Shown piece by piece: positions 18,053 through 24,188 of a stretch of DNA of 25,239 nt. Source of the DNA: an uncultured virus (IMG/VR IMGVR_UViG_3300017963_000022) (Duplodnaviria; Heunggongvirae; Uroviricota; Caudoviricetes); the IMG/VR virus record IMGVR_UViG_3300017963_000022; one strand, written 5' to 3'. A model generated the notes under the pieces. The model was not told the DNA's origin and made no database searches. It saw only the letters and a list, made by a program, of their open reading frames with translations. Numbering within the stretch: position 1 is the stretch's first letter; every line of letters starts with the position of its first letter. Both the position numbers and the translations under genes were made by a program.

Positions 18053-18082
18053 TTTACGCTCCTTTCTTAAAGTCACAGGTAA

Positions 18083-18156
18083 AACCCTGGGTGAGACTCG
18101 AACTCACAACACTCGGCTTAGAAGGCCGATGCTCTATCCAATTGAGCTACCAGGGC
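18083..18156 (-). tRNA. tRNA-Arg (UCU), no encoded CCA
   Basis: GCCCTGG TA GCTC AATTGGATA GAGC A TCGGC CT-TCT-AA GCCGA GTGTT GTGAG TTCGAGT CTCAC CCAGGGT forms a full cloverleaf. Confidence 0.95.
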
Positions 18157-18178
18157 TATTAATTAAATAAGCTCCAAT

Positions 18179-21964: not shown

Positions 21965-23548
21965 TTATTCTTCTGTGATGAAGTTACTCATCACGTTTGG
22001 AGTAGCTGTATCAAAACCAACTACGTCCATCATCCCACGATCTCTTGGGTCTGCAATAGTAAAACCATTGGAGACCATACCCACAACAATGAGTTTGGCA
22101 GGGATGCCAGTTTTCTGACGGTAATTGTCAAGAGCTTGCTTCGGATGTACCGTTCTTCCAGCCCATGTTTCGGAGTCGGTGTAAACAATGAAAGCATCCA
22201 CAGGAATGTTTCTCTCCGTAGCATATGTCATTGGAAGAGCACAATCAGTACCACCCATCGGGATTGCAGAGACTTTGCGGATAATATCGTCAAGTCTCTG
22301 ATTTGGCGAAAGTGAAACAGGAACGAGATCATGAGAGAAAGCCATGATTGACCATTTTGGTTCCACTCTCGCAGTAACCATAGCCATTGCCGCAGAGCCT
22401 ACACGAGGAGTAATTCCCGTCATTCCTGCAATAGTCTCCCATTCCATTGAGGCTGATACATCCAGAGCCAGCATTGTTCTCTTTTCTGTGGGTTGCACGT
22501 TGCCAAAAGAGGTATAGAAAGCTGTATTGAGTGCATCAACAAGCTGAGAGACTGGATTCCAGGTCAAACTACCTCTTACTCCTTGTCCATTCTCATATGC
22601 TTTGAGTGCTACAAGCACACCCAATGGGTGAATACGAGCATACTTCAATAACTCATCGTTAGTGACACGCTCGATTACTGTGGAGAGGGCATCGGACATT
22701 GGAGCAATCAATCCAAGATTGGTCATCTTTCCGAGATTGCGAATCATTGCACCCAGGGGCATATTCTCCAACAGTGCTTCCCAAACTTCGGCATGATTGA
22801 GGAATTGTGTTGGGAGCATCTCACGAGTTAGATTGTGTTTTTGGATGAGTTTAACAATTTCGGCAACAGAGGTTGATGCTTTTGCTTGTTCATACGCACT
22901 CAGCAATGGGTGTTGTGGCTCTGTATTCTTGCCGACAATCCAACCAAAGATGTCGTTTTGCTCTGAAGTATCTGGTACAGGTTTGATGAGACGCAGGATG
23001 TCTGCATGAGACCAGCCATCACGTTGCTGATATTTCACAACTTGATGAGCGAGACTATCAGTTTTCCTGTTCTTATACCAAGAGGTTAGTCCCTCTTTAT
23101 AGAGTTTCCCCCGACCCCTGAACTGCTTACAGTACTCAACAAAATGGAACAAGTGAGTACCAATGCGAGCAACTTTTGGAAGCACTGAGAAAGCCAACTT
23201 GCGGGTTTCTTCATCTCCCAATCCTGCACACATCGCCAGGATAAACAGAGCAGGGTCATTCTTTGGAGCTCGTCCAGTTGTCGAGATTTCAACAACTCGG
23301 TTAACCACTCGAACACCATCTTCTTTAATGCACTCTAGAACGTTGAGGGCGTTGTCTTTGGTCAGTTTTTGCTCCTTGACATAATAAGTTCCCCCCTCAC
23401 TTCCGAGAATGAGAAAACGGTCAAGCATATGCCATGCCTCTGCCGCCCACCCAAAACCTCCAGCGTTATTCTGTACTTGGTCATCTCGACCAGGAATACG
23501 CTCATCTTGGGGTGTTTCTCGTGTACTAAATTTTTGGTACGTTTTCAT
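21965..23548 (-). CDS. rsr: Ro60/Rsr TROVE-vWA RNA-binding protein, 527 aa
   Basis: NNAGGF, LDRFLILGSEGGTYY, KYQQRDGWSH.D.LRL, MIDAS DVSAS, GGTDCALPM, VYTDSET and VVGFD motifs. Start moved to MKTYQ (AGGAG RBS). Confidence 0.96.
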   Translation of the reverse strand: MKTYQKFSTRETPQDERIPGRDDQVQNNAGGFGWAAEAWHMLDRFLILGSEGGTYYVKEQKLTKDNALNVLECIKEDGVRVVNRVVEISTTGRAPKNDPALFILAMCAGLGDEETRKLAFSVLPKVARIGTHLFHFVEYCKQFRGRGKLYKEGLTSWYKNRKTDSLAHQVVKYQQRDGWSHADILRLIKPVPDTSEQNDIFGWIVGKNTEPQHPLLSAYEQAKASTSVAEIVKLIQKHNLTREMLPTQFLNHAEVWEALLENMPLGAMIRNLGKMTNLGLIAPMSDALSTVIERVTNDELLKYARIHPLGVLVALKAYENGQGVRGSLTWNPVSQLVDALNTAFYTSFGNVQPTEKRTMLALDVSASMEWETIAGMTGITPRVGSAAMAMVTARVEPKWSIMAFSHDLVPVSLSPNQRLDDIIRKVSAIPMGGTDCALPMTYATERNIPVDAFIVYTDSETWAGRTVHPKQALDNYRQKTGIPAKLIVVGMVSNGFTIADPRDRGMMDVVGFDTATPNVMSNFITEE

Positions 23549-23576
23549 CAGCTTATCTCCTATAAGCAATAGTGAA
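23544..23576 (-). promoter_or_regulatory. Y-RNA-mimic hairpin over the rsr RBS and start codon (putative autoregulatory operator)
   Basis: UUC ACU AUU GCUUAU [AGGAG] AUAAGC U GAU GAA: a 6-bp stem around the SD, a bulged U, then G-U, A-U and U-A pairs using the AUG. Confidence 0.6.
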
Positions 23577-23580
23577 TAAA

Positions 23581-23645
23581 AAGAGAGCAAGTTGGTGATA
23601 GTGGGAGACATCTTAGCAGGATAACCCACTATCTTCAGCTCTCTT
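23581..23645 (-). ncRNA. Y RNA-like element A (65 nt)
   Basis: AAGAGAGC TGAAG ATAGTGGG TTATC ... CCCACTAT CACCAA CTT GCTCTCTT. Confidence 0.85.
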
Positions 23646-23659
23646 ATAAACTCAAAAGA

Positions 23660-23753
23660 AAGGAGAACAAGTTGTGAACTTGGGAGTTTAGGGCTCCTTT
23701 CGGAGTTCCCGCTGGTATAGGTTAGCGATAACCCAAATTCTTCAGTTCTCCTT
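23660..23753 (-). ncRNA. Y RNA-like element B (94 nt)
   Basis: AAGGAGAAC TGAA GAATTTGGG TTATC ... CTCC-GAAA-GGAG ... CCCAAGTTC ACAA CTT GTTCTCCTT. Confidence 0.85.
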
Positions 23754-23755
23754 AT

Positions 23756-23881
23756 TGAGCATGGTGAGATTTGAACTCACGACCTCCTGTTTTGAATGAT
23801 AACCCTCATACTTCAGCCTAACGGCAAGTGAGTGTAAAAGGGAAATGTATACAGGTGCTCTACCAACTGAGCTACATGCTC
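23756..23881 (-). ncRNA. tRNA-Y RNA chimera C: intact tRNA body with a permuted Y module in the anticodon loop
   Basis: GAGCATG TA GCTC AGTTGGTA GAGC A CCTGT [60 nt incl. CCCTTTTAC..CTT GCC GTTA GGC TGAA GTATGAGGG TTATC] ACAGG AGGTC GTGAG TTCAAAT CTCAC CATGCTC A. Confidence 0.85.
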
Positions 23882-23887
23882 ACAAAG

Positions 23888-23962
23888 TCTTGGGGCAAGG
23901 GGGGAGTCAGGGAGAAAAGCTTCTTCAACAAGGAGATAACCCTAAACTCATCAGCCCCAAGA
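23888..23962 (-). ncRNA. Y RNA-like element D (75 nt)
   Basis: TCTTGGGGC TGAT GAGTTTAGGG TTATC ... CCCTGACTC CCCC CTT GCCCCAAGA. Confidence 0.85.
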
Positions 23963-23972
23963 TATTTATGTA

Positions 23973-24188
23973 TTAAAACTCATCATATTGCTCGGCAATG
24001 ATCTCTCCACCCTCCATAGGGTCATTAGACCAGAGAACAAAAGAAATACCAATGTCGTCAGTTAAAGGCTCAATCTCAAGTCTATGACCATCATCAAAGA
24101 CAAGGCAACGTGAAACTCCAGGATTAGATGGTTTTCCGAGACCAACATATTGTTTTCCTTTGAGATACATAAAAATATCTTCTATCAT
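23973..24188 (-). CDS. Hypothetical protein, 71 aa
   Basis: Start moved to MIEDIF (AAGGAG RBS); paralogous segment at 7535-7702. Confidence 0.75.
   Translation of the reverse strand: MIEDIFMYLKGKQYVGLGKPSNPGVSRCLVFDDGHRLEIEPLTDDIGISFVLWSNDPMEGGEIIAEQYDEF

Follow-up and report, generated by a model that had tools for sequence, protein, structure and literature searches.

A permuted Y-RNA-like handle at the translation start of a phage rsr gene, a candidate site of Ro60 autoregulation

In this study, we examined the translation start of rsr, the gene for a Ro60 orthologue (Rsr), in a stretch of 25,239 nucleotides (nt) from an uncultured virus of the Caudoviricetes (IMG/VR record IMGVR_UViG_3300017963_000022), hereafter the window, whose features are given in window coordinates and lie on its minus strand. 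Four Y-RNA modules (Y1 to Y4) stand directly in front of rsr, and the segment of mRNA that holds the Shine-Dalgarno sequence (SD) and the start codon of the gene resembles, in sequence and in structure, the handle by which such RNAs dock on Ro60, with the two strands of the handle in permuted order. The placement of this resemblance is not random, and permuted handles recur at the rsr ribosome-binding site (RBS) in related phages. We regard it as plausible, if short of probable, that Rsr docks on this hairpin and blocks initiation on its own mRNA, co-transcribed Y RNAs competing for the protein. Conservation of Ro60 and its Y RNAs spans bacteria, phages and humans, and in humans Ro60 is a major autoantigen; we know of no account of how the quantity of Ro60 is adjusted to that of its RNA partners in cells or phages. 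An earlier note on this DNA, made from its letters, had proposed such an autoregulation and knew of no report of it. Our own search of full text (subscription-only literature lying outside it) likewise turned up no account of autoregulation by Ro60/Rsr and no mention of Y-like elements in rsr leaders, and neither "autoregul" nor "mRNA" occurs in the phiLo paper, as far as the available part of its text extends and its supplements apart.

The rsr leader and the Y handles of the same locus

The element centres on a core hairpin (23551-23567) of 6 base pairs (bp), in which GCUUAU (23567-23562) and AUAAGC (23556-23551) enclose a 5-nt loop, AGGAG (23557-23561), that is the SD itself. The core is followed by a bulged U23550 and by G, A and U (together 23547-23550), with the possible pairs G23549-U23568, A23548-U23569 and U23547-A23570, so placed that the start codon AUG (23548-23546) falls inside a handle-like 5'-strand motif, C-U-G-AUG. 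The other flank, UAUUCACUAUU (23568-23578), is like the 3' strand of a handle: its UU runs into the first G of the stem to give UUG, and UCAC stands ahead. Farther out, ACU (23573-23571) is unpaired and UUC (23576-23574) lies opposite GAA (23546-23544), with a pair probability of 0.25-0.58. The six core pairs reach probabilities of 0.93-0.99, and the core is present in the minimum free energy (MFE) structure of both a 166-nt and a 446-nt context, as well as in the centroid of the latter. Two folding candidates were discarded. The hairpin is not an intrinsic terminator, since no U tract follows it and a terminator scan was negative; and a pairing with the 3' strand of Y3, which replaced the hairpin in a fragment starting inside Y3, was an artefact of the cut, the fold of the full array retaining the hairpin. 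In an Rfam scan reaching E values of 10, the only match to touch positions 23544-23576 was a chance one to mir-46, which is centred on Y4 and extends here with its flank.

The likeness to the Y modules extends over both strands. In an ungapped alignment the leader matches all invariant 5'-strand columns of the four modules (C, U, G, A, x, G), and the UUG of the 3' strand is invariant in all five rows, leader included; the base before it is C in the four modules and A in the leader, and UCAC stands a few bases ahead of it in the leader, Y2, Y3 and Y4. Two correspondences pointed out in the earlier note were borne out: GCUGAUGA of the leader is identical over 8 nt to the 5' strand of Y1 (23955-23948; element D of that note), and the leader's parts follow one another as 3' strand, loop and 5' strand, just as they do in the handle that the tRNA-like Y2 contains (about 23827-23811; element C). 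All five copies have U as the bulged base (CUGA), whereas a rough regular-expression census of other loci counted 224 occurrences of CCGAA and a total of 19 for the CTGA variants; this U bulge throughout the locus may go with a changed specificity of the window's Rsr. Set against the published consensus, GNCGAAN0-1G, a likely Rsr contact in a complex that Ro60 touches mainly on the 5' strand (PMC4201824), or against the shorter CGAA, the leader's G-C-U-G-A-U-G departs twice (C to U, A to U). For the phage protein, single substitutions in CGAA cost about 3-4-fold in affinity, C to U only about 3-fold (PMC12135203); both sources are cited here for the parts of them that were available.

Two descriptors served to find such permuted handles, a strict one (UUG, a stem of at least 4 bp, a loop of 3-45 nt, C, a pyrimidine, GA) and a tight one (stem at least 5 bp, loop at most 12 nt), the descriptor having been written after the leader had been seen. 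On both strands of the window the strict form has 23 matches, against 17.4 in 40 shuffles, and the leader is the only match in the window with a stem of at least 6 bp and a loop of at most 10 nt. The tight form, applied to 189 rsr loci (804 kb; assembled as described below), matches 78 times on the rsr strand and 23 times on the opposite strand; the latter rate amounts to roughly 1e-3 for a 28-nt target, and the window's leader is the only tight match at -11 to +3 of an rsr start among these loci. A chance origin of the resemblance was rejected because both strands and the hairpin match together. We conclude that the leader either descends from a Y handle or has the form of one, chance being no serious rival.

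Permuted handles in homologous rsr leaders

Homologous loci (designated L with a number) were gathered to the number of 224, of which 223 have a tblastn match and 217 a start call; they yield 189 distinct 60-nt leaders, 188 of them with 90 nt upstream. As controls we took, from the same loci and on both strands, 193 distinct starts of other ATG open reading frames (ORFs) of at least 100 amino acids with an SD, none of them within 300 nt of the rsr start. The strict pyrimidine-bulge handle, with its GA at -24 to +3 of the AUG, is found in 23 of the 188 rsr leaders and at two of the 193 controls (p 4.5e-6), and shuffled leaders give on average 3.4 strict matches, with a maximum of 8 in 50 rounds. 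In a FastTree phylogeny of 186 Rsr proteins all 23 strict cases fall in the part of the tree that holds the window, and there are none among some 130 Verrucomicrobia-type or other bacterial loci. The window itself belongs to a clade of 10 members (support 0.979), sister to the main clade of the leaders that we call class I; the joint clade has 28 members and a support of 0.943.

Class I, in which the GA lies at -24 to -12 and thus just 5' of the SD, makes up 20 of the 188 leaders, against 2 of the 193 controls (p 3.5e-5). These leaders carry a permuted Y handle (UUG-stem-loop-stem-C-C-GAA) that ends 0-5 nt 5' of the SD, its invariants being UUG, C-C-GA and the closing G-C pair. In large phage contigs the build is one of two hairpins, an upper hairpin and (C)AACC preceding the handle, and no published description of it was found. 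Within the handle, three of seven pairs show double changes, four pairs being guaranteed by the sequence selection, and RNAalifold folds 14 class-I leaders into two adjacent hairpins with compensatory changes in 9 of 11 pairs. We consider class I a real conserved element, in effect a Y handle permuted in full, with its free end next to the SD. Its carriers include L056 (1387-1464), L005, L119, L022, L002, L128, L124, L132, L117, L050, L051, L058, L052 and L270, among others, and such loci often have ordinary Y modules elsewhere too. In L102 (483-560; also of class I), L103, L106 and L108 the permuted handle is short (CACUUGCC..GGGC-C-GAA), comes after tandem Y RNAs and is joined directly to the SD (GAAAGGAG); these four loci have an extra Y module just past the rsr stop.

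Within the window's 10-member clade, three relatives have a local hairpin at the rsr start that ends in the closing pair, C and G(A/G), 0-5 nt from the AUG. In L069 it reads GUUCUC, GAAAG, GAGAGC, then C and GAUG; in L067, GCUUC, AGAAA, GGAGC, then C and GGAUUAUG; and in L105, AUCCC..GGGGU, then C and GAAAUG. Between the window and L069, three of the six stem pairs are compensatory double changes. In L121 and L008 the 5' motif has at best a distant partner, and L184 has a variant upstream. The class with the window's own geometry (class II, GA at -11 to +3) comprises the window, L042 and L069. Another 31 viral loci, gathered as an independent set once the descriptors had been fixed, added one class-I leader (L270), one of class II (L299, whose bulged base is U and whose loop holds the SD) and two relaxed matches. 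No closer relatives that would permit a finer study of covariation were found: a short metagenome contig, L065, is 100% identical, the only identical sequence found, and so contributes nothing new, and the next-best Rsr is below 60% identity.

A different leader structure was seen at L176, L167, L155, L163 and about 60 other Verrucomicrobia-type loci, which share a conserved pair of hairpins at -45 to +6 of rsr: the first, GUGCCGRGAGUUGGCGGCAC, lies about 15-20 nt ahead of the SD, and in the second, GGAGGCC pairs with the AUGGCU start region to form the stem. These loci also have a tight permuted handle at about -550.

The rsr gene and the Y-RNA array in front of it

The gene rsr (23548-21965) encodes 527 amino acids plus stop, with Pfam matches to TROVE (2.4e-41) and vWA_Ro60 (2.3e-67). 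Its start at 23548 is the sole candidate start with an SD (SD score 5, spacing 8), and the N-terminus MKTYQ is common to the proteins of the window, L105 and L041. Upstream, Y1 (23888-23962) reads UCUUGGGGC-U-GAUGAG ... CCUUG-CCCCAAGA. Y2 (23756-23881) is tRNA-like, scoring 59.8 bits against the Rfam tRNA family with a 60-nt insert at the anticodon loop. Its arms follow the order of an ordinary tRNA (acceptor, D arm, anticodon stem, T arm), the cloverleaf is in the MFE structure, and the insert carries a permuted Ro-handle (UUG-CC-GUUA-GG-C-U-GAAG, about 23827-23811), an upper stem and GGGUUAUC. ARAGORN makes no call on Y2, whose topology, compared with the published YrlA layout, is a circular permutation of it. 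A build like that of Y2 was seen by eye also in L067, L069, L042, L047 and L103. Elsewhere in the window an ordinary tRNA-Arg (anticodon TCT; 18082-18157) lies in a phage-like region.

Y3 (23663-23750) reads GAGAAC-U-GAAGAA ... UUCACAACUUG-UUCUC, and its first three upper-stem pairs, GAA/UUC, are the same as the outer GAA/UUC pairs of the rsr leader. Y4 (23583-23643) reads GAGAGC-U-GAAG ... CAACUUG-CUCUC, then UUUUUAUU, and ends 12 nt ahead of the leader's UCAC. The stretch 23580-23647, which covers Y4, scores 35.4 bits against RF01656, a family of nematode stem-bulge (Y-like) RNAs, under the gathering score of 38; the two have GGGUUAUC and CACCAACUUG in common. Over this region of the window the tRNA family alone passes the Rfam gathering threshold, and the rest are RF01656 and chance matches of microRNA type. 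Folded as a whole, the 446-nt array forms four separate Y folds and the small hairpin at the rsr start, with a z-score of -4.39 and none of 100 shuffles as stable. In a Thermus phage, stem-bulge RNAs with CGAA are encoded upstream of the Ro60 gene and are bound by its product (PMC12135203). A candidate sigma-70-like promoter (23982-24009; 9 of 12 matches) lies upstream of the array, two such sites being found in the region where shuffles lead one to expect 2.0. On this weak evidence, transcription from 24009-23982 might yield a single transcript of Y1 to Y4 and rsr.

Possible roles of the leader and related systems

Autoregulation could proceed as follows. The rsr initiation region would be a miniature, circularly permuted copy of the phage's own Y-RNA docking handle for Ro60, running from a 3' strand (UCAC..UUG) through the 6-bp lower stem and its SD loop to a 5' strand (C, bulged U, GA) that passes into the AUG. 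With the four Y RNAs and rsr on one transcript, Rsr free of Y RNAs would dock on the weak hairpin and stabilise it; the docked protein would cover SD and AUG and so block 30S binding. Surplus Y RNA would compete Rsr off the leader, by which Rsr would be held near the level of its RNA partners. Structurally, the premise of the earlier note is sound, the leader containing both strands of the locus's Ro-handle, permuted, with SD and AUG inside; the comparative support is mixed. The published contact motif and the binding of CGAA RNAs by a phage Ro60, both cited above, support the premise of this reading. More broadly, permuted Y handles in rsr leaders may be cis-operators that sense the ratio of free Rsr to Y RNA and set the translation of rsr, a generalisation that we put forward tentatively. 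Such operators might come in two forms, a division that we offer with the same reserve: one of two hairpins that ends at the SD (about 20 related phage leaders), and a compact one with the SD in the loop (the window, L069, L067 and L299).

A number of observations weigh against an Rsr operator. The earlier note had drawn a complete structure in which pairing goes on past the bulge; its letters, its coordinates and the 6-bp core hold, but the extension is marginal, the pairs beyond the bulge appearing in the MFE structure and reaching a probability of only 0.21-0.28 (populated about 25%), and the complete structure is computed at -2.7 kcal/mol, where the core by itself gives -4.8 and the MFE structure -5.1. 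The stability of the 33-mer is ordinary (z-score -1.08, 31 of 200 shuffles folding equally well), and the rsr RBS region ranks 11th by MFE among 44 candidate gene starts of the window; since the energy is unremarkable, the interest of the hairpin rests on its resemblance to the Y handle. That resemblance has its own limits. CTGAWGA occurs 15 times in the window, where 11.3 are expected; the conserved Met-Lys N-terminus fixes AUGAA, which leaves the 5' motif only some 4 nt in which it can vary; and the leader's handle is without the long terminal stem, the real upper stem and the GGGUUAUC loop of true modules, that sequence being absent downstream of the motif, where just three pairs (UUC/GAA) are possible. 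A covariance model of class I, built from 19 leaders, gives the window's leader 7.5 bits (E 4.6), and with filters off over the window the leader ranks 11th of 21 matches, which is not significant; the permuted module of Y2 scores equally low, at 7.6 bits.

The comparison of loci has similar weak points. Some control ORFs are probably not genes, as in the case of a recurrent ORF antisense to rsr, and this bears on all comparisons with the 193 controls. The earlier note had counted absence of the fold from homologous loci as a refutation, and on this point the loci give a mixed answer: in 20 of the 23 strict cases the geometry differs, the handle lying 5' of the SD, the window's own geometry is found in 3 of 188 leaders, the window included, and in none of 193 controls (p 0.12), and most loci have no such fold. 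Relaxed descriptors at -11 to +3 are not enriched (15 of 188 against 10 of 193), nor is the 5' motif alone near the AUG (8 of 188 against 11 of 193), some definitions of it being commoner at controls. The longest substring shared by a leader with the Y 5' strands of its own locus is distributed as in controls (Mann-Whitney p 0.75); in the tail, at least 7 nt are shared in 7 of 156 rsr leaders, all with the motif core, and in 3 of 157 controls, one with the core. Among the nine clade relatives, L041, L107 and L220 are without any such leader element, and 27 of the 31 independent loci have no handle at all. Moreover, the class-I cases are clustered in the Rsr tree, so that the 20 cases represent about 4-5 lineages and not 20 independent events.

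Some of these data would suit a functional RBS hairpin that works without Rsr, either by tuning access to SD and AUG or as a stabiliser of the 5' terminus left after excision of the Y RNAs; we think this possible, though on the unlikely side. Such a hairpin would be built from duplicated Y-module sequence, and the resemblance would therefore be explained. Its position is conserved with compensatory changes in L069 and L067, where the 5' arm is a plain anti-SD (UUCUC and CUUC), its stability is ordinary for RBS hairpins of the window, and the U-rich end of Y4, 12 nt upstream, is a plausible point of processing or termination. Tandem Y arrays, moreover, give rise automatically to pairings of a 3' strand with the next 5' strand across a spacer, that is, to junction "permuted handles": at the Y3/Y4 junction (23670-23635) the 3' strand of Y3 can pair with the 5' strand of Y4 over 6 bp with a loop of 19 nt, which makes a descriptor match. 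What a hairpin of this kind leaves unexplained are the retained flanks (UUG, the pyrimidine bulge, GA and UCAC) and the 20 of 188 leaders in which a full bulged handle ends before the SD and does not lie over it.

The same junction copies could also be read as the source of an evolutionary relic, a decaying partial fifth Y module or Y-Y junction, without function, in which the rsr start falls by chance. Most homologous loci do without a leader element, the upper stem and the GGGUUAUC loop are absent from the leader, and the score of the class-I model is insignificant, all as a relic would have it. We nonetheless hold a relic to be improbable: the two arms pair without a mismatch along all 6 bp and the loop coincides with the SD, and analogous compensated hairpins are present in relatives of about 55% protein identity, a distance at which one would no longer expect to recognise neutral intergenic sequence.

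Finally, Rsr might bind the leader and not repress, protecting the 5' end of the mRNA, defining the processing of a Y-rsr precursor or delivering the mRNA to PNPase. Y RNAs are stabilised by Ro60 binding and a Y RNA tethers Rsr to PNPase (PMC4201824), while PNPase is attenuated by phage Ro60-Yrl complexes (PMC12135203), as described in the available parts of these papers; and class-I handles lie beside the SD, not over it. In the window, however, SD and AUG are inside the handle and occlusion would be the simplest result of binding; binding free of repression seems to us very improbable.

If autoregulation by Rsr were true, a Y-RNA mimic on the RBS of the Ro60 gene would make a simple feedback loop. 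The leader would be a minimal natural Ro60 ligand (about 35 nt) of new topology and, for any Ro60, the first target among mRNAs whose docking site is defined, and Y-RNA handles would be re-usable as cis-regulatory elements of mRNAs. If Rsr does not bind the leader, what is left is an RBS hairpin of the ordinary kind, built of duplicated Y-RNA sequence.

Several known systems help to place the element. The Ro60 handle of Y RNAs, a bulged helix with GGUCCGA in vertebrates and GNCGAAN0-1G or CGAA in bacteria and phages (PMC4201824 and PMC12135203, in their available parts), is resembled by the leader in the closing G-C pair, the one bulged pyrimidine, the possible G.U and A-U pairs to a 3'-strand UUG and the extra unpaired bases of the 3' strand. 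The leader differs from it in lying in an mRNA and not in a small RNA, and in having U in place of C and GAU in place of GAA; its strand order is reversed with respect to the terminal stem of a Y handle, the lower stem being a hairpin of 6 bp closed by the SD loop. Class I, from the sister clade of the window, likewise sets a permuted Ro-handle on the rsr leader; unlike the window's element, which encloses the SD, it stops 0-5 nt short of it, its bulged base is C, and a second (upper) hairpin often precedes it. Autogenous translational control by ligand mimicry is familiar from the thrS operator of Escherichia coli, which mimics tRNA-Thr, and from the ribosomal-protein operators of S8, L1, S15 and L20. 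As in these, the rsr leader would place a cut-down copy of the ligand over the SD and AUG of the protein's own gene, and competition between ligand and operator would set the level: the leader overlaps the SD, in the hairpin loop, and the start codon, in the 5'-strand motif, and partially resembles the primary RNA ligand of Rsr. It would differ from them in that the natural ligands are encoded just upstream, on the same predicted transcript. The MS2 and Q-beta operators are small bulged hairpins that hold the initiation region of the replicase gene, and the coat protein stabilises the hairpin and shuts off translation. They share with the rsr leader a weak small phage hairpin, a bulged base and an initiation region within it; unlike the arrangement proposed here, the repressor controls another gene and the hairpin mimics no separate RNA partner. 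Overall, to judge from these comparisons, autogenous control through a mimic of the ligand is a known class; for Ro60 to employ it, and for a permuted Y handle to lie within an mRNA, would be new.

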